Part shown: positions 1 to 60,704 of the stretch, piece after piece
Position numbering within the stretch: position 1 is the stretch's first letter
Layout: every line of letters starts with the position of its first letter
DNA from: Alphaproteobacteria bacterium
GTDB taxonomy: Bacteria > Pseudomonadota > Alphaproteobacteria > UBA828
Length of the DNA: 64,000 bases
Direction: 5' to 3'
Assembly (NCBI GenBank): GCA_963422645.2
Contig: CAXXVO010000009.1
Span: 224,001 to 288,000, forward strand
The notes under the pieces: model-generated
What the model saw: only the letters and a program-made list of their open reading frames with translations
Database searches by the model: none
What the model was told of the DNA's origin: nothing
Position numbers and translations under genes: made by a program

Positions 1-107
1 GCAACGACGACAGTGGTTGCGAGGGATGATGGCTCGAGAAGCTCCTTCAGGCAGCAGAAGGCCTCGTTACGGGCGGCGAGGTCTTCGTGCCAGTGCGACA
101 CCGTCAC
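1..107 (-). CDS. IS66-family transposase, N-terminus (partial)
   Basis: GTG overlaps the MTase stop; VTVSHWHEDLAARNEAFCCLKELL aligns with VTVSRWHEDLAAHDEAFACLQDLF of the full copies. Confidence 0.8.
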   Translation of the reverse strand, partial: MTVSHWHEDLAARNEAFCCLKELLEPSSLATTVVV

Positions 108-769
108 GTGTCTTCGGCCTCGACGGCCATCATGGCGGCGAGCACGGCGAGGCGTTCGCCCGGCGGCAAGGCCTGGTAGCGCCGGCCCCAGTTGGCTGCC
201 TTGCGCTTGATGCGCTGGCGGTCGGTGAAGTTCCGGCCTGCGTGGCTGGCCCAATGCATCCGGTCGGGGGCGTAGTTGAACCAGACGACCTCGGTTCGCA
301 CCAGACCCTGGGTCGTGACCTGCAGCGCCAGCCGGCGCCATCCCGCCAGCACCTCGTCATAGAGCGCCGACGGATGGCCCGAGATCATGACCTGGCAGGG
401 CAGAGCCTTGAGCAGCGCGAGAAGCGCGACGTGGCCGGCCTCCTCGTACTCGAAGCGGTAGCGCTGCGCCGAGCGGCGGGTCGCGTGCAGATAGGGCGGA
501 TCGCTGTAAACCAGCTCCGGGCCCAGGAACGGGAACGAGGCCAGGAAGTCATGGGCACAGCCGTGAACCAGATCGACCGGGTAGTCGCAGACGAAGGCCT
601 CGAGCGCCTGCGCATCGCGGTCGATGCCGATCGAACGCACGGCCGGCGGCTTGCGCTTCATCAGCGCCCCGCCCCCAAGGTGGCTTTCGATGTAGACGGA
701 GTGCGGCGGCATCAGCGCAATCAGCGCTTGGCACAGACCTGCTGTCGCCTTCGAGCCGAAATACCCCAT
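104..769 (-). CDS. Dam-like (D12 class) N6-adenine DNA methyltransferase
   Basis: YFGSK, ESHLGGGA (SAM binding) and DPPY catalytic motifs. Confidence 0.88.
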   Translation of the reverse strand: MGYFGSKATAGLCQALIALMPPHSVYIESHLGGGALMKRKPPAVRSIGIDRDAQALEAFVCDYPVDLVHGCAHDFLASFPFLGPELVYSDPPYLHATRRSAQRYRFEYEEAGHVALLALLKALPCQVMISGHPSALYDEVLAGWRRLALQVTTQGLVRTEVVWFNYAPDRMHWASHAGRNFTDRQRIKRKAANWGRRYQALPPGERLAVLAAMMAVEAEDT

Positions 770-1251
770 GGACCGCTCCCGTCACGCGAGAGAGCAGTCC
801 ATAGTCCCGCAACTCTATGAGGTCAAGAACCAATCGCGGTGGCAGAACCAGGCCGCGGCCGCCGCCATAATCACCGTCCTCAACTCAGGATTGGGGTACC
901 TGGGTAGTTACATAATGGTAGAAAATTTCATTTGAAACTTGCCTGTCTTGTGCCCGCTATCATGGAAGTTTTTCTAACAATATCTGACATTCTCTGCCGT
1001 GCATTATTCTGCAAGGGTAACTCAGAAAATTGGCAGCTAAGGGCCAATATATCTTCCCCACTCCCTGACCGCCATTCGGATTATACGTCTGACATAAGCA
1101 GGTTAGGTCAGAACAGGCAGATCCGATATGTCGAATTACCAGGGAATTATTCCCTTCGACTGACTGGTACAAGCGGTGCAAATAGAAGAGAATAGCTGCC
1201 ACTACTCTCCTGTACACCTCGATATAATTCGCTGCACTTGGCGGAATATTC

Positions 1252-1266: not shown

Positions 1267-1490
1267 TGAGGGAGTTAGAAATCCTTGCTGGACCATACGC
1301 CCCGGTATTGCCACATCCATACGTGAAGTGTGTGCAGTTAATTCCTGAAAGGCCGGGGCCGCAGATGTTCGAGAAACGAAACGACCTGGTAACTGCCCAG
1401 GTCTGATTCTGCCGAGCACTCGGACGTGATGGATTGATGGTTCTGACCAGCCAGGGGTCAGGCGGCGCTTTCCCGGAGCAGCGCAGGATT

Positions 1491-3032
1491 TCAGAAGCGC
1501 AATACGGGGATCAGCTGGATTGGATCGGGGTGCGCCAGGGTTTCGAGGACATTCCAGCGCTGTTTTCGAGCGGTGGCGATGACGGATCGCAGGTTTGCGA
1601 AGTCGCGGGCGCCTTGTATCGAGCGGAAGCCGCCTGAGATTTTCTGGCGCAGCTTGCCCATTCGGAGGTCGCGCTCGGCCTCGTTGTTGGAGAAGGGGGT
1701 TCGCGGATCGGTGAGGAAGCGCAGGCACCCCTCCTTGTACTTCTGGAGTCGGAGGGCGAGGTTGTGACCGATGCGGCGCTTTTGTCGTCCGCGCTTTCCG
1801 GTCTGGAGCGGTGGCATTTCTTCGTGAGAGGCGATGGCACGTTCGAGGATGCGGTCCCAGGCTCGCGAGATGCGGGCCACCAGTGAGGCGGGCACGTCGC
1901 GGTCGTTCTTGTGGGCGAAGCGGGCGGCTCTGTTGGCACGGATGAGGAGCCGGTGCGTGCTCGTTGCCCAGTCTTCCTTCTCGATCTCGATGAGGGCTTG
2001 GAGCTCGCGCAGGTGATGGGCGTTGCAGGCCCCGTGGCGCACGCCCTCGAGAGCGAAGTAGGTGGCGTAGTCGTCATGGATGACGATGCCGTTGAGCTTC
2101 TCGTCGATGTGGCTGCGCCCGGTGGCGACGCGCAGGATGGTGAGCAACGGGGTGCACAGCACATGGAGCCAATGGGTCCGGGCGGCGATGCGGATGCCGG
2201 TCTCGTCGAGGTGTTTGACTGGGGCTGCGGTGCGGATGATCTCCGCGAGGCGATCGAGGAAGCCCTCGAAGCGCCGGGCGGTGCGCCTTCCCATGGCGAC
2301 GATGGTGGCTGTTGAGAGCTTGACCGCGAAGAGGTCGCTCATGACCTCGGCGACCCGCTTCTCGGGAATGAACTGAGCGTGCAGCAGGTAGGTCACCCAC
2401 GCGGTGATGCGCGGCCCGTATTGGACCGGTGCGCTCACGCCGTTCGGGAAGACGGCTGTCGTCACGGTGCCGCAGGCAGCGCAGAGGCAACGATGGCCGC
2501 GATGTTCGGTGACCTCGAGGGGCTGCGGCTCGGGCACATCGAAGACCTGCCGGCAGACGGGGGCTCCGTGACGGTCAGCGTCCGACAGCGGCGCGCCGCA
2601 GCCCTCACAGGCGGACGGATCATGATCGACGACATGGTCGGGCGTCGCGGTCCGCTCCAGGGTAGTTCCCTTGTGGCCCGGCTGGCCGCCACTGGGCCTG
2701 TCGGACTTGCCGCGCTGGCTCCGGGTGCGCTTCTCCCGGTCACCGCTCTTCTTCTTCAGACCGTCGCTGGCCGGCGGCTTGGAGCTGGTGGTGCTGTCGA
2801 GCGCGGCGCTGCGCTCGAGTTCGGCGATCCGCTCGCGCAAGCGGGCGTTCTCCCGCTCCAGCGCGTCGTTCTCCTTGACCAGGGCCGCGCTCAGGCGCAG
2901 CAACCCCTGGCCCCATTCCCGAATGGCTTTGACGGCGGTCATTGCGAAGGATTGTGGGGTGAAAAGGTCCTGCAGGCACGCGAAGGCCTCGTCGTGGGCA
3001 GCGAGGTCCTCGTGCCAGCGCGACACTGTCAC
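1491..3032 (-). CDS. IS66-family DDE transposase (TnpC-like, about 513 aa)
   Basis: Coiled coil, SSKPPASD and GGQPGHKG motifs, Cys cluster, HLDETG / HDDY / NNEAERDLR catalytic motifs; GTG start overlaps the MTase stop. Confidence 0.95.
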   Translation of the reverse strand: MTVSRWHEDLAAHDEAFACLQDLFTPQSFAMTAVKAIREWGQGLLRLSAALVKENDALERENARLRERIAELERSAALDSTTSSKPPASDGLKKKSGDREKRTRSQRGKSDRPSGGQPGHKGTTLERTATPDHVVDHDPSACEGCGAPLSDADRHGAPVCRQVFDVPEPQPLEVTEHRGHRCLCAACGTVTTAVFPNGVSAPVQYGPRITAWVTYLLHAQFIPEKRVAEVMSDLFAVKLSTATIVAMGRRTARRFEGFLDRLAEIIRTAAPVKHLDETGIRIAARTHWLHVLCTPLLTILRVATGRSHIDEKLNGIVIHDDYATYFALEGVRHGACNAHHLRELQALIEIEKEDWATSTHRLLIRANRAARFAHKNDRDVPASLVARISRAWDRILERAIASHEEMPPLQTGKRGRQKRRIGHNLALRLQKYKEGCLRFLTDPRTPFSNNEAERDLRMGKLRQKISGGFRSIQGARDFANLRSVIATARKQRWNVLETLAHPDPIQLIPVLRF

Positions 3033-3697
3033 GAACCCTCGTCGGCCTCGACGGCCATGATCGCGGCCAGCACCGCCAGGCGTTCGCCCGCCGGCATGGC
3101 CTCGTAGCGCCGGCCCCAGTTGGCCGCCTTGCGCTTGATGCACTGGCGCTCGGTGAAGTTCCGGCCGGCGAAGCTCGCCCAGTGCACCCGGTCAGGCGCG
3201 AAGTTGAACCACACGACCTCGGTCCGCACCTGGGCCTGGGTCGTCACCTGCAGCGCCAGCCGGCGCCAGCCCGCCAGCAGCTCGTCATAGAGCGCAGACG
3301 GGTGGCCCGAGACCATCACCTGGCAGGGCAGACCCTTGAGCAGTTCGAGGAGCGCGACGTGGTCGGCCTCCTCGTACTCGAAGCGGTAGCGCTGCGACGA
3401 ACGCCGGGTCGCGTGCAGATAGGGCGGATCGCTGTAGACCAGCTCCGGGCCCAGAAACGGGAACGAGGCCAGGAAGGAATGGGCGCAGCCGGGCACCAAC
3501 TCCACCGGGTAGTCGCAGCCAAAGGCCTCAAGCGCCCGCTCGTCGCGGTCGATCCCGATCGAGCGCATGGCCGCAGGCTTGCGCTTCATCAGCGCCCCGC
3601 CCCCAAGATGGCTCTCGATATAGACAGAGTGCCGCGGCATCAGCGCAATCAGCGCCTGGCTCAGACCGGTCGTCGCCTTCGACCCGAAATACCCCAC
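3029..3697 (-). CDS. Dam-like N6-adenine DNA methyltransferase
   Basis: ESHLGGGA and DPPY motifs; lies inside the IS ends. Confidence 0.88.
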   Translation of the reverse strand: MGYFGSKATTGLSQALIALMPRHSVYIESHLGGGALMKRKPAAMRSIGIDRDERALEAFGCDYPVELVPGCAHSFLASFPFLGPELVYSDPPYLHATRRSSQRYRFEYEEADHVALLELLKGLPCQVMVSGHPSALYDELLAGWRRLALQVTTQAQVRTEVVWFNFAPDRVHWASFAGRNFTERQCIKRKAANWGRRYEAMPAGERLAVLAAIMAVEADEGS

Positions 3698-4772
3698 CGG
3701 CTGCTCCTCTCATGCGAGAGTGCAACCCATAGGCGAGAGAACCTATACAGTCAAGCGGGGATCAACGACGCGCCGACGGCGAAACGGCACCGACGGCAAG
3801 CAACATCAGCACGCACTCAGAACTGGCGGCGGGGTACCTGGGTAGTTACACGACCTGATCAAATTCCTCGCCGTTGCGGAGACCGGCGCCATTCTCTCCG
3901 CCGCCGACAAGCTCGGCATCACGCAACCTGCTCTCTCGCGCGTCGTGGCGCGGCTCGAGCGCCAGTTCGGAGGCCGGCTCTTCGACCGCATGTCCACGGG
4001 CGTTCGGCTCACGCCGCTCGGCGCCGTCGTCGCGGATCTGGCACGCCATATCCTTTACGAAATCGAGGCTGCCGAAGAGAAGATCACCGCGACGCTCGCG
4101 GGCCGCACCGGCAGCCTGCGAGTCACGGCTGGCCCCATGTGGATGCGGGCTGTGCTTCCCGATGCCATAGCCAAGTTCCACGAGACCTGCCCCGGTGTGG
4201 AGATCAAGCTGAAGACGACGCCGATGACCGAAGGCATCCGCCTGCTCGCCAACGGTGATAACGACATTCACTGCGGCGGCATCAACAGCAACGAACCCTT
4301 GCCGCAGTTCCTCAAGAGCGAACGCTTCCTCGACATGACCTGGGGCATCGTCGCCCACAAGGACCATCCGCTCCATACCGGAACGGTGAGCGATGACGCG
4401 CTCGCCCAGTACCCGTGGATCGACTTCGACGCACCCATGCGGGCGGATGCCGCCAACGGGCGGCCTTCGTTGGCCGGAGTCCTCGACCAGCTCTATGACA
4501 GGACGGGCAAGCGGGTGAAGACCGTCACGCGCGCCGGTTCCGCCGGCCTGTTCCTGATGACGGCAGGCCCCTACCTCTCCTGGCTGTCGCTGACCTTCCT
4601 GGAGCGCCTTTCCGAACATCCGCTCAAGCCCTTGCCGGTGGCATTCGGCACCTATCGTCACCGTACCGGAATGGTGTCGCGGCGCTCCTCCGACGATATG
4701 TCGCCGTTCGGGCGCTTCCGGGGAATCGTGCGCGACATTGCGTCGTCGCGAAACGCCTGAGCCCCGGCCTCG

Positions 4773-5189
4773 TTAGGAATCTCCCCCGCCTTCGTCCCTC
4801 GGGGTGAGCACGAGCGAGGCGGAGTTCAGGCAGTAGCGTAAACCCGTGGGCGCCGGCCCGTCGGGGAAGACGTGGCCCAGATGGGCGTCGCATCGGCGGC
4901 ACACGACCTCGGTCCGGCGCATGCCGTAGCTCACGTCTTCCACCGTGCCGACGCTCGCGGCATCGACCGGCCTCGTGAAGCTCGGCCAGCCAGTACCGGA
5001 ATCGAATTTGTCGCCGGAGTTGAAGAGGGCGGCGCCGCAACAGACGCAGGCATACTCTCCCGGCGTCTTCTCGTCGCAGTAGGCGCCCGCGAAGGGCCGC
5101 TCGGTGCCCCCCTTCCGGGCCACGTAGTACTGCTCCTCGGTCAGCGCTGCGCGCCATTCCGCATCCGTCTTTACCACCTTGTCCGCCAT
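4773..5189 (-). CDS. msrB: Peptide-methionine (R)-S-oxide reductase
   Basis: [33 protein letters not shown]. Confidence 0.97.
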
Positions 5190-5334: not shown

Positions 5335-6297
5335 ATGGCACGGCCCGCACCTGCGACAGTCAGCACTATTGCGTTGCTCGGCACCGGCACCATCGGGGCG
5401 AGCTGGGCGACGTACTTTCTGGCGCGGGGCTTCTCGGTCACGGCCTGGGACCCCGCTCCCGATACCGCCGCGCGCCTCAGCGCCTTCATCGACGCGGCCT
5501 GGCCCGCGATGGAGCGGCTCGGCGTCAGTGCAGGCGCCGACCCCGCGCGGGTGCGCGTGGTGGACCAGCCGGAGCAGGCGGTCGAAGGCGCGGTTTTCGT
5601 ACAGGAGAACGCGCCGGAGGAGCGGGAGCTCAAGCGCGAGCTCTACCGTCGTATCGACCCGGTGCTGCCGGCGGGCGCGGTGCTCGCGTCGAGCTCGTCG
5701 GGGCTCCTGATCAGCGAGCTCCAGGAGGGCCTGCGCAACGCGGCACGCTTCGTCATCGGCCACCCCTTCAACCCGCCCCATCTCGTCCCCCTGGTGGAAG
5801 TGGTGGGTGGGCGCGACACCGACCCGGCCACGATCGATTGGGTTCTGGATTTCTACAATGCCCACGGTAAGCACGCGATCCGGGTGGAGCGCGAGGTGCC
5901 TGGCCATATCGCCAACAGGCTGCAGGCGGCGCTCCTGCGCGAGGCCTTTCACCTCTTCCTTTCCGGCGTGGCCAGCGCCGCCGACATCGACGCGGCCGTT
6001 GCCCAGGGCCCGGGGCTCCGCTGGGCCTTCATGGGGCCCTTCCTTACCATGCACCTGGCCGGCGGCGAGGGTGGCATGCGCGGCGCGCTCAACCACTTCG
6101 GGCCGGGGCTGGAAAACTGGTGGGCCGATTCTGGCACACCCCGCCTGGATGAGGGCGCGATCGAGGCCATGGGCCGCGCCGTGGACGACATGCTGGACGG
6201 CCAGTCGATCCCGGCGCTCGCGGCCGTGCGCGATGCGCGACTGCTCGCCCTGCTGGCGGCGCTGGAAGCATCTGCGCCACCGGCCGACGCGGGCTAA
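5335..6297 (+). CDS. 3-hydroxyacyl-CoA dehydrogenase family protein (carnitine dehydrogenase/lambda-crystallin-like)
   Basis: GTGTIG Rossmann motif, QENAPE, HPFNPPHLVPLVE; AAGGAGG before ATG 5335. Confidence 0.9.
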   Translation: MARPAPATVSTIALLGTGTIGASWATYFLARGFSVTAWDPAPDTAARLSAFIDAAWPAMERLGVSAGADPARVRVVDQPEQAVEGAVFVQENAPEERELKRELYRRIDPVLPAGAVLASSSSGLLISELQEGLRNAARFVIGHPFNPPHLVPLVEVVGGRDTDPATIDWVLDFYNAHGKHAIRVEREVPGHIANRLQAALLREAFHLFLSGVASAADIDAAVAQGPGLRWAFMGPFLTMHLAGGEGGMRGALNHFGPGLENWWADSGTPRLDEGAIEAMGRAVDDMLDGQSIPALAAVRDARLLALLAALEASAPPADAG

Positions 6298-23589: not shown

Positions 23590-23793
23590 CCCGGGCATCG
23601 CGGAGGTGGGTAGCAGGTACGTTATTCAAAGGGGATTATATGTAACTACCCAGGTACCCCGCCGCCAGTTCTGAGTGCGTGCTGATGTTGCTTGCCGTCG
23701 GTGCCGTTTCGCCGTCGGCGCGTCGTTGATCCCCGCTTGACTGTATAGGTTCTCTCGCCTATGGGTTGCACTCTCGCATGAGAGGAGCAGCCG

Positions 23794-24462
23794 GTGGGGT
23801 ATTTCGGGTCGAAGGCGACGACCGGTCTGAGCCAGGCGCTGATTGCGCTGATGCCGCGGCACTCTGTCTATATCGAGAGCCATCTTGGGGGCGGGGCGCT
23901 GATGAAGCGCAAGCCTGCGGCCATGCGCTCGATCGGGATCGACCGCGACGAGCGGGCGCTTGAGGCCTTTGGCTGCGACTACCCGGTGGAGTTGGTGCCC
24001 GGCTGCGCCCATTCCTTCCTGGCCTCGTTCCCGTTTCTGGGCCCGGAGCTGGTCTACAGCGATCCGCCCTATCTGCACGCGACCCGGCGTTCGTCGCAGC
24101 GCTACCGCTTCGAGTACGAGGAGGCCGACCACGTCGCGCTCCTCGAACTGCTCAAGGGTCTGCCCTGCCAGGTGATGGTCTCGGGCCACCCGTCTGCGCT
24201 CTATGACGAGCTGCTGGCGGGCTGGCGCCGGCTGGCGCTGCAGGTGACGACCCAGGCCCAGGTGCGGACCGAGGTCGTGTGGTTCAACTTCGCGCCTGAC
24301 CGGGTGCACTGGGCGAGCTTCGCCGGCCGGAACTTCACCGAGCGCCAGTGCATCAAGCGCAAGGCGGCCAACTGGGGCCGGCGCTACGAGGCCATGCCGG
24401 CGGGCGAACGCCTGGCGGTGCTGGCCGCGATCATGGCCGTCGAGGCCGACGAGGGTTCGTGA
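23794..24462 (+). CDS. Dam-like N6-adenine DNA methyltransferase
   Basis: Protein identical to 3029-3697. Confidence 0.88.
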   Translation: MGYFGSKATTGLSQALIALMPRHSVYIESHLGGGALMKRKPAAMRSIGIDRDERALEAFGCDYPVELVPGCAHSFLASFPFLGPELVYSDPPYLHATRRSSQRYRFEYEEADHVALLELLKGLPCQVMVSGHPSALYDELLAGWRRLALQVTTQAQVRTEVVWFNFAPDRVHWASFAGRNFTERQCIKRKAANWGRRYEAMPAGERLAVLAAIMAVEADEGS

Positions 24463-25287
24463 CAGTGTCGCGCTGGCACGAGGACCTCGCTGCCCACGAC
24501 GAGGCCTTCGCGTGCCTGCAGGACCTTTTCACCCCACAATCCTTCGCAATGACCGCCGTCAAAGCCATTCGGGAATGGGGCCAGGGGTTGCTGCGCCTGA
24601 GCGCGGCCCTGGTCAAGGAGAACGACGCGCTGGAGCGGGAGAACGCCCGCTTGCGCGAGCGGATCGCCGAACTCGAGCGCAGCGCCGCGCTCGACAGCAC
24701 CACCAGCTCCAAGCCGCCGGCCAGCGACGGTCTGAAGAAGAAGAGCGGTGACCGGGAGAAGCGCACCCGGAGCCAGCGCGGCAAGTCCGACAGGCCCAGT
24801 GGCGGCCAGCCGGGCCACAAGGGAACTACCCTGGAGCGGACCGCGACGCCCGACCATGTCGTCGATCATGATCCGTCCGCCTGTGAGGGCTGCGGCGCGC
24901 CGCTGTCGGACGCTGACCGTCACGGAGCCCCCGTCTGCCGGCAGGTCTTCGATGTGCCCGAGCCGCAGCCCCTCGAGGTCACCGAACATCGCGGCCATCG
25001 TTGCCTCTGCGCTGCCTGCGGCACCGTGACGACAGCCGTCTTCCCGAACGGCGTGAGCGCACCGGTCCAATACGGGCCGCGCATCACCGCGTGGGTGACC
25101 TACCTGCTGCACGCTCAGTTCATTCCCGAGAAGCGGGTCGCCGAGGTCATGAGCGACCTCTTCGCGGTCAAGCTCTCAACAGCCACCATCGTCGCCATGG
25201 GAAGGCGCACCGCCCGGCGCTTCGAGGGCTTCCTCGATCGCCTCGCGGAGATCATCCGCACCGCAGCCCCAGTCAAACACCTCGACG
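24459..25287 (+). pseudogene. IS66 transposase, 3'-truncated
   Basis: Identity with the full copy ends at KHLD; rest of the DDE domain absent. Confidence 0.9.
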
Positions 25288-58128: not shown

Positions 58129-58252
58129 GGGAATCCCACATTAAAATTTTGTAACTGCCCAGGTCTGATTCTGCCGAGCACTCGGACGTGATGGATTGAT
58201 GGTTCTGACCAGCCAGGGGTCAGGCGGCGCTTTCCCGGAGCAGCGCAGGATT

Positions 58253-59794
58253 TCAGAAGCGCAATACGGGGATCAGCTGGATTGGATCGGGGTGCGCCAG
58301 GGTTTCGAGGACATTCCAGCGCTGTTTTCGAGCGGTGGCGATGACGGATCGCAGGTTTGCGAAGTCGCGGGCGCCTTGTATCGAGCGGAAGCCGCCTGAG
58401 ATTTTCTGGCGCAGCTTGCCCATTCGGAGGTCGCGCTCGGCCTCGTTGTTGGAGAAGGGGGTTCGCGGATCGGTGAGGAAGCGCAGGCACCCCTCCTTGT
58501 ACTTCTGGAGTCGGAGGGCGAGGTTGTGACCGATGCGGCGCTTTTGTCGTCCGCGCTTTCCGGTCTGGAGCGGTGGCATTTCTTCGTGAGAGGCGATGGC
58601 ACGTTCGAGGATGCGGTCCCAGGCTCGCGAGATGCGGGCCACCAGTGAGGCGGGCACGTCGCGGTCGTTCTTGTGGGCGAAGCGGGCGGCTCTGTTGGCA
58701 CGGATGAGGAGCCGGTGCGTGCTCGTTGCCCAGTCTTCCTTCTCGATCTCGATGAGGGCTTGGAGCTCGCGCAGGTGATGGGCGTTGCAGGCCCCGTGGC
58801 GCACGCCCTCGAGAGCGAAGTAGGTGGCGTAGTCGTCATGGATGACGATGCCGTTGAGCTTCTCGTCGATGTGGCTGCGCCCGGTGGCGACGCGCAGGAT
58901 GGTGAGCAACGGGGTGCACAGCACATGGAGCCAATGGGTCCGGGCGGCGATGCGGATGCCGGTCTCGTCGAGGTGTTTGACTGGGGCTGCGGTGCGGATG
59001 ATCTCCGCGAGGCGATCGAGGAAGCCCTCGAAGCGCCGGGCGGTGCGCCTTCCCATGGCGACGATGGTGGCTGTTGAGAGCTTGACCGCGAAGAGGTCGC
59101 TCATGACCTCGGCGACCCGCTTCTCGGGAATGAACTGAGCGTGCAGCAGGTAGGTCACCCACGCGGTGATGCGCGGCCCGTATTGGACCGGTGCGCTCAC
59201 GCCGTTCGGGAAGACGGCTGTCGTCACGGTGCCGCAGGCAGCGCAGAGGCAACGATGGCCGCGATGTTCGGTGACCTCGAGGGGCTGCGGCTCGGGCACA
59301 TCGAAGACCTGCCGGCAGACGGGGGCTCCGTGACGGTCAGCGTCCGACAGCGGCGCGCCGCAGCCCTCACAGGCGGACGGATCATGATCGACGACATGGT
59401 CGGGCGTCGCGGTCCGCTCCAGGGTAGTTCCCTTGTGGCCCGGCTGGCCGCCACTGGGCCTGTCGGACTTGCCGCGCTGGCTCCGGGTGCGCTTCTCCCG
59501 GTCACCGCTCTTCTTCTTCAGACCGTCGCTGGCCGGCGGCTTGGAGCTGGTGGTGCTGTCGAGCGCGGCGCTGCGCTCGAGTTCGGCGATCCGCTCGCGC
59601 AAGCGGGCGTTCTCCCGCTCCAGCGCGTCGTTCTCCTTGACCAGGGCCGCGCTCAGGCGCAGCAACCCCTGGCCCCATTCCCGAATGGCTTTGACGGCGG
59701 TCATTGCGAAGGATTGTGGGGTGAAAAGGTCCTGCAGGCACGCGAAGGCCTCGTCGTGGGCAGCGAGGTCCTCGTGCCAGCGCGACACTGTCAC
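58253..59794 (-). CDS. IS66-family DDE transposase
   Basis: Protein identical to 1491-3032. Confidence 0.95.
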   Translation of the reverse strand: MTVSRWHEDLAAHDEAFACLQDLFTPQSFAMTAVKAIREWGQGLLRLSAALVKENDALERENARLRERIAELERSAALDSTTSSKPPASDGLKKKSGDREKRTRSQRGKSDRPSGGQPGHKGTTLERTATPDHVVDHDPSACEGCGAPLSDADRHGAPVCRQVFDVPEPQPLEVTEHRGHRCLCAACGTVTTAVFPNGVSAPVQYGPRITAWVTYLLHAQFIPEKRVAEVMSDLFAVKLSTATIVAMGRRTARRFEGFLDRLAEIIRTAAPVKHLDETGIRIAARTHWLHVLCTPLLTILRVATGRSHIDEKLNGIVIHDDYATYFALEGVRHGACNAHHLRELQALIEIEKEDWATSTHRLLIRANRAARFAHKNDRDVPASLVARISRAWDRILERAIASHEEMPPLQTGKRGRQKRRIGHNLALRLQKYKEGCLRFLTDPRTPFSNNEAERDLRMGKLRQKISGGFRSIQGARDFANLRSVIATARKQRWNVLETLAHPDPIQLIPVLRF

Positions 59795-60459
59795 GAACCC
59801 TCGTCGGCCTCGACGGCCATGATCGCGGCCAGCACCGCCAGGCGTTCGCCCGCCGGCATGGCCTCGTAGCGCCGGCCCCAGTTGGCCGCCTTGCGCTTGA
59901 TGCACTGGCGCTCGGTGAAGTTCCGGCCGGCGAAGCTCGCCCAGTGCACCCGGTCAGGCGCGAAGTTGAACCACACGACCTCGGTCCGCACCTGGGCCTG
60001 GGTCGTCACCTGCAGCGCCAGCCGGCGCCAGCCCGCCAGCAGCTCGTCATAGAGCGCAGACGGGTGGCCCGAGACCATCACCTGGCAGGGCAGACCCTTG
60101 AGCAGTTCGAGGAGCGCGACGTGGTCGGCCTCCTCGTACTCGAAGCGGTAGCGCTGCGACGAACGCCGGGTCGCGTGCAGATAGGGCGGATCGCTGTAGA
60201 CCAGCTCCGGGCCCAGAAACGGGAACGAGGCCAGGAAGGAATGGGCGCAGCCGTGCACCAACTCCACCGGGTAGTCGCAGCCAAAGGCCTCAAGCGCCCG
60301 CTCGTCGCGGTCGATCCCGATCGAGCGCATGGCCGCAGGCTTGCGCTTCATCAGCGCCCCGCCCCCAAGATGGCTCTCGATATAGACAGAGTGCCGCGGC
60401 ATCAGCGCAATCAGCGCCTGGCTCAGACCGGTCGTCGCCTTCGACCCGAAATACCCCAC
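59791..60459 (-). CDS. Dam-like N6-adenine DNA methyltransferase
   Basis: As copy 2 but VHG instead of VPG. Confidence 0.88.
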   Translation of the reverse strand: MGYFGSKATTGLSQALIALMPRHSVYIESHLGGGALMKRKPAAMRSIGIDRDERALEAFGCDYPVELVHGCAHSFLASFPFLGPELVYSDPPYLHATRRSSQRYRFEYEEADHVALLELLKGLPCQVMVSGHPSALYDELLAGWRRLALQVTTQAQVRTEVVWFNFAPDRVHWASFAGRNFTERQCIKRKAANWGRRYEAMPAGERLAVLAAIMAVEADEGS

Positions 60460-60704
60460 CGGCTGCTCCTCTCATGCGAGAGTGCAACCCATAGGCGAGA
60501 TAACCTATACAGTCAAGCGGGGATCAACGACGCGCCGACGGCGAAACGGCACCGACGGCAAGCAACATCAGCACGCACTCAGAACTGGCGGCGGGGTACC
60601 TGGGTAGTTACAAAATTTTCTTGTCTCGTCCCGCGTCGTGTTCCGTCACCGGGTGCTCGTTGCGCGTGCTCGGGCCCGGCGCTACAGTTCTCACTGTCGA
60701 CGCG

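Follow-up and report, generated by a model that had tools for sequence, protein, structure and literature searches.

The DNA analysed here, called the window, is a 64,000-nucleotide stretch of an alphaproteobacterial genome (contig CAXXVO010000009.1), and its positions 1389-3849 hold a recently active insertion sequence (IS) of the IS66 family, in which a gene for a methylase-like protein of 222 amino acids (aa) is placed directly ahead of the transposase gene tnpC. The methylase-like gene belongs to the family of the plasmid protein Upf31. Together with its predicted promoter and a palindrome within that promoter, it constitutes a cassette that precedes the transposases of no fewer than three unrelated IS families. 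By analogy with Upf31, and with slightly better than even confidence, the arrangement is interpreted as an autorepressed 5' cassette on a tnpC-only IS66 element, whose feedback the transposase behind it would inherit. Within the literature searched, a Upf31-family cassette, including promoter and palindrome, that is carried by at least three IS families and is abundant in nature is new.

Structure of the 2461-bp element

Both genes of the 2461-bp element are on the minus strand. The 222-aa DPPY open reading frame (ORF; 3697..3029) is followed by the 513-aa IS66 transposase, whose GTG start codon at 3032 runs into the TGA of the upstream gene (GTGA overlap). The terminal repeats are 14 bp long and read GTAACT(A/G)CCCAGGT, and this end motif was found six times in the window compared with 0.01 expected by chance. 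The unit, its ends, its two genes and their overlap were all present as described in an original prediction that had been made from the sequence. The features of the element are as follows.

1381..1388, no strand: target-site duplication ACGACCTG, 8 bp, on the right side in gene orientation, with its twin at 3850-3857
1389..1402, minus strand: right terminal inverted repeat, GTAACTGCCCAGGT on the plus strand, with 13 of 14 positions the same as in the left end
1491..3032, minus strand: IS66-family transposase TnpC, 513 aa, GTG start (PF03050, PF20042, zf-IS66, NF033517)
3029..3697, minus strand: Upf31-family methylase-like protein, 222 aa, with a Dam/DpnM-like core (LGGGA, DPPY) and a basic hairpin at residues 181-221
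3726..3731, minus strand: predicted -10 hexamer TATGGG (TATGCT in most relatives), from the upstream-region alignment and missed by a consensus scan
3728..3732, minus strand: putative operator half-site 2, CTATG, overlapping the predicted -10 and conserved in the upstream-region alignment
3743..3747, minus strand: putative operator half-site 1, TATAG (family consensus CATAG), directly after the predicted -35
3749..3754, minus strand: predicted -35 hexamer TTGACT, 57 nt ahead of the start codon
3836..3849, minus strand: left terminal inverted repeat, GTAACTACCCAGGT in gene orientation and ACCTGGGTAGTTAC on the plus strand, from the end-motif search
3850..3857, no strand: target-site duplication ACGACCTG, 8 bp, on the left side in gene orientation

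The IS66 family is defined by ends starting with GTAA and by 8-bp target duplications, and the element has both. Its transposase matched PF03050 (3e-38), PF20042 (DUF6444) and zf-IS66 in Pfam and scored 284 bits against NF033517 (cut-off 180), which identifies it as an IS66-type DDE transposase (TnpC). In the ORF list and the profile searches, tnpA and tnpB were absent from the element, and the methylase-like gene was the sole other supported ORF. Among 72,556 plasmid records, the nearest relatives of the transposase were 45-47% identical (top 47.5%), and the two that were inspected, from Octadecabacter and Bradyrhizobium, were single-gene, tnpC-only elements. The nearest named elements, ISGst1 and ISGka4, were 34-37% identical. 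As the transposase is nearest to tnpC-only elements, the upstream gene was added to a tnpC-only (ISBst12-like) IS66 backbone. The original prediction had placed it instead of tnpA/tnpB, and on this point it had to be revised.

The ISBst12 group of the family is defined by tnpC as the single gene. The element resembles this group (ISGst1, ISGka4) in its IS66 DDE transposase, its DUF6444 N-terminal region, its GTAA ends, its 8-bp duplications and the lack of tnpA/tnpB, but it is at most 37% identical to the named members and holds within its ends a second, 5' gene with its own predicted promoter. In the case of canonical IS66 (tnpA-tnpB-tnpC), the transposase family, the end type, the duplication length and the overlapping, coupled frames are shared, whereas tnpA and tnpB are lacking and the upstream gene of the element is unrelated to both.

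The methylase-like protein and its homologue Upf31

The 222-aa protein had been called a DNA adenine methyltransferase, and this description also needs revising, as only its core is Dam/DpnM-like. No Pfam match was obtained at an E-value of 0.01, and the match to TIGR00571 was partial, with 27.2 bits against a cut-off of 114.85, so the score required of the Dam family was not reached. A profile built from 41 diverse homologues gave two-block matches to DpnM (1.3e-9), E. coli Dam (1e-5) and T4 Dam, the blocks being the N-terminal YxGxK with the glycine-loop region and the DPPY region. Accordingly, the DPPY motif and the glycine-rich cofactor loop of N6-adenine methyltransferases are present in the sequence. 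In contrast, the target-recognition insert of the Dam family (~105 residues, DpnM 75-179) has no counterpart, and only ~13 residues are found at that place. Across the 41 homologues, G5, H23, G32, D90, P91, P92 and H113 were invariant, and Y93 and G34 each occurred in at least 90%. The AlphaFold model had a predicted local distance difference test (pLDDT) score of 91.5, and its best Foldseek matches were E. coli Dam, DpnM and Mcbe1 with template-modelling (TM) scores of 0.50-0.56. In the model, a basic helical hairpin is added at the C-terminus by residues 181-221. The protein is thus similar to Dam and DpnM (M.DpnII 1) in both aligned blocks and in its best fold matches, and it differs from them in the missing insert, in scores below the family cut-offs and in the additional hairpin. 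Homodimer prediction gave a score of 0.21 against a mark of 0.42, which speaks neither for nor against a dimer.

The family is large, as 2754 proteins, mostly of 219-226 aa, were found at an E-value of 0.001 among length-matched candidates, and 5917 homologue clusters were present in a library clustered at 50% identity. The 120 homologues listed were 70-95% identical, and four of them had a precomputed PF02086 assignment. The ratio of nonsynonymous to synonymous substitution rates (dN/dS) was 0.09-0.33 for the methylase-like gene and 0.24 for tnpC, which indicates purifying selection on the methylase-like gene.

Upf31 of plasmid pBP136 was 43% identical to the 222-aa protein over residues 3-220 (E 5e-60). 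The alignment took in the C-terminal domain, with a tryptophan matched to W198, and this full-length homology places the protein in the Upf31 family. According to the report on Upf31, the full-length protein represses its own 68-bp promoter ~50-fold, from 4.76 to 0.09 XylE units, and strong repression is lost with a natural, C-terminally truncated upf31 allele (PMC11997246). The same report states that Upf31 methylation was not detected by DpnI/MboI digestion or by SMRT (single-molecule real-time) sequencing under native expression and that the homologues are mostly on IncP-1 beta plasmids, and the sections consulted make no mention of insertion sequences (PMC11997246). A beta motif order is also stated for Upf31 (PMC11997246), whereas in our alignments the glycine loop precedes DPPY, as in Dam/DpnM.

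Upf31 (IncP-1 beta plasmids pBP136 and R751) and the IS-borne protein have in common a length of ~222-225 aa, a methylase-like core with DPPY and, at the C-terminus, a basic domain that includes the tryptophan, and upf31 likewise has a TTGACA promoter directly upstream. Unlike the gene in the element, upf31 stands alone in the plasmid backbone and is not followed by a transposase. Moreover, KorB binding is predicted for it, KorB having no counterpart in the 2461-bp element, and its -35 and -10 enclose a sequence other than that of the IS cassette. In pBP136, CATCGCCATT occurs twice upstream of upf31 as a direct repeat, with one repeat overlapping the promoter spacer (L207:1341-1460), and it may be a candidate Upf31 binding site in IncP-1 beta plasmids.

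Plasmid homologues with 43-53% identity, upf31.0 of IncP-1 among them, occurred as stand-alone genes in 157 records, and 126 of these plasmid records were conjugative. In the four plasmid contexts that were read, the neighbours included ArdC-like zincin, SprT-like, RadC and StbB/TraD genes. M.EcoGIX and M.BceJIII are similar in being small orphan methylase-like genes on conjugative plasmids. According to their report, they are silent in native hosts and active on single strands, belong to the beta class and are abundant on IncI1 and IncF plasmids (PMC7736820). Membership of the 222-aa protein in their family was considered and rejected because they are of the beta class and IncI1/IncF plasmids did not lead among the 157 records; the two groups are analogous.

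A palindrome within the predicted promoter

The upstream regions of the gene (113 distinct regions) were aligned on their -35. In 111 of the 113, TTGAC (TTAAC in one) was found 42-81 nt before the start codon, and in the consensus cTTGACAnCATAG-N10-CTATGCT a -35 and a -10 are separated by a 17-nt spacer and the pentamers are reverse-complementary. The palindrome, CATAG-N10-CTATG, is therefore placed within a predicted sigma-70-type promoter, and its second half overlaps the -10. Among the 111 regions, half-site 1 was conserved with A in 100, T in 110, A in 111 and G in 111, and half-site 2 with C in 105, T in 108, A in 111, T in 93 and G in 93, while the 10 bases between the pentamers were not conserved. 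The pentamers were perfectly complementary in 66 regions and had one mismatch in 27, compared with perfect complementarity in 9 of 111 for an inner-spacer control. G8 was paired with C25 in three of seven regions, compared with 5 of 100 for A8. In addition, the non-consensus G and C of TATGCT were conserved. This promoter pattern was common to the IS66, IS701 and ISKra4 carriers described below, and the palindrome was also present in two of the four plasmid homologues inspected.

In the host genome, the palindrome pattern occurred 139 times, compared with ~4 expected, and in 79 of the occurrences TTGAC immediately preceded it. Of the remaining 60, the first 20 were the promoter of a related, sister element read on the opposite strand. 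All inspected occurrences were cassette promoters and not element ends. In Logan contigs from RNA libraries of relatives (85-99% alike), runs X16 and X17 cross the junction of the two genes and the depth figures drop upstream of the predicted promoter, although such contigs cannot show a transcript, its start or its level, and DNA may be present in the libraries.

Carriage by unrelated insertion sequences

The gene was surveyed in 80 genome loci, mostly from alphaproteobacterial metagenome-assembled genomes (MAGs) and also from Dehalococcoidia, Binatia, Tectimicrobiota and Gammaproteobacteria, and an IS66 transposase followed it directly in 67. An IS701-family transposase followed in seven loci (NF049999, 309 bits for L095). 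Here, a repeated unit of ~2.78 kb with CTCGACTTTGTACA ends takes in the gene, and a 5-bp CTNAG duplication was present in all six copies compared. In locus L106, the gene was followed by an ISKra4-family transposase (345 bits); 23-nt inverted repeats and a 7-bp duplication surround both genes, and other contigs of this MAG break at the element ends. The protein was 72-84% identical across the IS66, IS701 and ISKra4 carriers, and the element ends differed.

Of 80 metagenome contigs, 70 had an assessable downstream ORF, which was of IS66 in 58, IS701 in one, a second IS701-like type in two and ISKra4 in one. The remaining downstream ORFs comprised two IS66 fragments, five without a family match and one non-transposase. 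The gap from the gene to the transposase was 4-30 nt in most metagenome loci. The downstream ORFs of L135, L145, L164 and L198 matched no NCBIfam or Pfam family. By language-model features, the 447-aa ORF after the cassette at L164:795-2135 resembles IS4/ISNCY-type DDE transposases (score 0.96), and L164 may represent a further, IS4/ISNCY-like carrier family.

At L199:667-1326, a 67%-identical homologue has an AT-rich upstream region without the promoter motif and is followed by an ABC-transporter binding-protein gene, and this context looks non-IS. IS630 was considered as a fourth carrier at L098 and rejected, because it has its own 32-nt inverted repeats (4754-4785 and 5906-5937), is wholly downstream and is an independent insertion. 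At L099, an IS110-like ORF was recognised by eye on the opposite strand. The two loci, from one Thalassobaculaceae MAG, share the cassette alone (L098:3867-4692 and L099:3859-4686), with ~130 bp upstream, the gene and ~26 bp after it. Since different insertion sequences follow this shared cassette, the cassette also exists without an intact partner transposase.

In a quick maximum-likelihood tree (IQ-TREE) with two plasmid rows as the outgroup, the IS-borne proteins grouped apart from the two plasmid proteins (support 97). Five IS701 rows formed one nested clade (support 92), and two ISKra4 rows were found in two places beside IS66-borne rows. From this pattern, IS66 looks to be the main carrier, with the cassette captured later by other IS families.

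Insertion sequences with passenger methylases or with repressors of their own are already known. Nevertheless, no published description of this gene in IS66, IS701 or ISKra4 elements was found in titles and abstract openings, ISfinder and TnCentral being outside the search. The layout itself is common in metagenomes, where IS66 adjoins the gene in the 58 of 70 contigs given above, and IS66 is not the only carrier.

Copies and mobility in the host genome

In the 5.9-Mb assembly of 23 contigs, 13 full-length copies of the 2461-bp element with 99.8-100% identity were found using blastn, which supplies the genome-wide count that the original prediction had proposed as a check. Perfect 8-bp duplications, each different, were present at 10 of these copies. 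In the case of the other three, the flanks mismatched, and one such flank was equal to the duplication of another copy, which suggests recombination between copies. As had been predicted, the two full copies in the window have different perfect duplications (ACGACCTG and AAAATTTT) and differ at exactly two positions, 111 and 358 in gene orientation. The 2461-bp element is a recently active IS66-family IS, and the upstream gene moves within it. The other copies in the window are as follows.

58151..60611, minus strand: second full element copy, flanks AAAATTTT, two differences from copy 1 (1389-3849), from sequence comparison
23642..25287, plus strand: partial copy, 1-1646 in gene orientation, with the left end, the promoter, the methylase-like gene and the 5' part of tnpC
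1..911, minus strand: left portion of a sister-element copy (2508-bp type, 82% identity), the remainder preceding the window; it includes the left repeat (898-911) and the methylase-like gene (110-769)

Copy 1 split a LysR-type regulator gene near its 5' end (window 1365-1388 and 3858-4760). The frame at 3858-4760 matched HTH_1 from profile position 7, as well as LysR_substrate, and excising copy 1 plus one duplication gave a single open LysR frame across the junction.

The sister element of 2508 bp is 82% identical to the 2461-bp element over both genes and shares its terminal 14 bp, and duplications were found at 22 of the 36 copies examined. Nucleotide similarity between the two elements starts at the -10 rather than from the end of the element. 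Their synonymous divergence was 0.31 in the methylase-like gene and 0.63 in tnpC, which suggests cassette exchange or conversion between element lineages.

Using tblastn, 152 IS66 transposase loci of at least 300 aa were found in the genome. Of these, 27 were of the 2461-bp type and 50 of the sister type, and the upstream gene adjoined in 22 and 47, respectively. The other 75 belonged to a third IS66 type with 40-75% identity, and 72 of them had no upstream gene. This type is a 1.7-kb element with only tnpC, of 521 aa (L204:58-1769, G000:C11). One of its ends reads ACCTGGGCAGTTAC and resembles the ends of both cassette-bearing elements. Judging from the ends, cross-mobilisation between the cassette-less type and the two cassette-bearing elements is conceivable.

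The methylase-like gene had 72 matches in its own genome, with a stop in two of the rows listed. Among 40 related genomes searched, four had the gene, in 1 to 16 copies each. Therefore, acquisition was patchy and expansion was lineage-specific.

Another element of ~2.5 kb, with CAGACTTCCTGACCTC ends and a 6-bp AGGTTC duplication (L202:150-2661, equal to G000:C10:125349-127860, and 15 more places), was found at an identical spot in the cassette, namely, 106-111 in gene orientation, in the promoter spacer between the -35 and the -10. Of 16 examined junctions, 14 had it at this spot, with both orientations represented. This would be accounted for either by targeting of the promoter-spacer site or by a spread of composites. 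Its ORFs matched IS630 and IS481 models only weakly, in a helix-turn-helix.

Proposed function and alternative explanations

In the favoured reading, the 222-aa protein would act on the palindrome and silence its own promoter, like its plasmid homologue Upf31. The conserved palindrome in the promoter is consistent with such repression. The tnpC gene is translationally coupled to the upstream gene, and transposase synthesis, we infer, would come under the same negative feedback. Being diffusible, the protein would reach every copy; the brake would thus become stronger as copies accumulate and would be released in a naive cell after horizontal transfer. Since such a cassette needs no co-adaptation with the transposase, its presence in IS701-family and ISKra4-family elements would also be explained. 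Brakes on transposition are known from other elements, including InsA of IS1, the Tn5 inhibitor and Dam control of IS10. The proposed mechanism is similar to these in that transposase supply is limited by a product or mark acting on all copies. In contrast to them, the brake would be a methylase-fold protein with its own putative operator, common to unrelated IS families.

Several points weigh against this autorepression. Its function is carried over from a plasmid protein of 43% identity, and the promoter of pBP136 has CATCG ... CGAGA at the palindrome positions, only 3 of 5 complementary. The centres of the half-sites are separated by 15 bp, an unusual distance for a dimeric binder. A consensus promoter scan of 1300-3950 called 0 sites, because the -10 of copy 1 is TATGGG, with 3 of 6 consensus positions, and tnpC may have a separate promoter inside the upstream gene. 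Furthermore, ~77 loci of the two cassette-bearing transposase types are found beside 75 cassette-less loci in the same genome, and the supposed brake did not stop the expansion of the element there. Finally, a pure repressor leaves the invariant DPPY and glycine-loop residues unexplained. As the catalytic motif is not explained by repression alone, a methylating protein, or one that both represses and methylates, has to be weighed as well.

The first of these alternatives, to which we give a chance of about one in four, is a methyl-switch, a more specific form of the self-methylating IS of the original prediction. An active N6-adenine methyltransferase would mark the adenines of CATAG/CTATG, including that at the second position of the -10, and would silence the promoter and the transposase until the site becomes hemimethylated on replication, as a self-contained analogue of the Dam control of IS10. 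The invariance of D90, P91 and P92 and the invariance or near-invariance of G32 and G34 in the 41 homologues, the purifying selection on the gene, the confident model (pLDDT 91.5) with Dam, DpnM and Mcbe1 as its best fold matches, the profile match to DpnM (1.3e-9) and the A that is invariant (111/111) at the -10 within a conserved pentamer are consistent with it. Conversely, the ~105-residue recognition insert of Dam/DpnM is without a counterpart, TIGR00571 gave 27 bits against 114.85 with no Pfam match, and there is no known recognition sequence. For Upf31, SMRT sequencing and DpnI/MboI digests found no methylation, although this negative came from a native, autorepressed plasmid (PMC11997246). 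The enzymes of the other plasmid methylase family are reported to have been silent in their original hosts and yet active on single strands (PMC7736820).

A combination of both activities seems rather unlikely. The protein would be a repressor as well as an active adenine methylase marking the invariant A of its own -10 in CTATG, and would serve as a portable epigenetic governor. Synthesis of transposase would then be confined to naive cells or to a short time after passage of the replication fork, and any DDE transposon capturing the cassette would acquire copy-number control together with replication coupling. This would explain the spread into IS66, IS701, ISKra4 and probably IS4/ISNCY-like elements in several phyla.

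The gene could also be cargo without a role in transposition, such as an anti-restriction gene or a host-beneficial orphan methylase as on conjugative plasmids, but we regard this as improbable. The 43-53% identical homologues that stand alone in 157 plasmid records (126 conjugative), with ArdC-like zincin, SprT-like, RadC and StbB/TraD genes nearby in the four contexts, fit such a role, and plasmid methylases of another family shield entering DNA from restriction, according to their report (PMC7736820). However, in every carrier family the transposase follows the gene directly on the same strand, with an overlap or a gap of 4-70 nt, and the gene is placed behind the one recognisable promoter. 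Such a fixed arrangement is not expected of cargo. Moreover, the characterised homologue Upf31 acts as a regulator (PMC11997246). An accessory subunit that binds the transposase or the element ends and fills the TnpA/TnpB role of canonical IS66 is very improbable, because a 72-84% identical protein serves unrelated transposases (IS66, IS701, ISKra4) with differing ends and the palindrome is at promoters rather than at element ends, even though translational coupling favours a fixed stoichiometry and the C-terminal hairpin is basic. With the gene in a fixed position and partner transposases that are unrelated, both the cargo and the subunit explanations are less likely.

Implications

Self-limitation of insertion sequences is poorly understood beyond a few model elements. 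Here, one conserved module combines a promoter and its embedded palindrome with a methylase-fold protein, and autorepression by the plasmid homologue of this protein has been shown in experiments. The module precedes the transposases of three or more unrelated IS families, is present in thousands of environmental sequences and exceeds 70 copies in a single genome. The abundant 'DNA adenine methylase' calls in annotation may be regulators, and a test is needed before they are counted among restriction-modification or methylome genes. The cassette may be a portable brake on transposition. If it is, it would offer a simple and transferable explanation for bursts of transposition after transfer followed by quiescence, and Upf31, so far a plasmid oddity, would gain a far wider biological setting.

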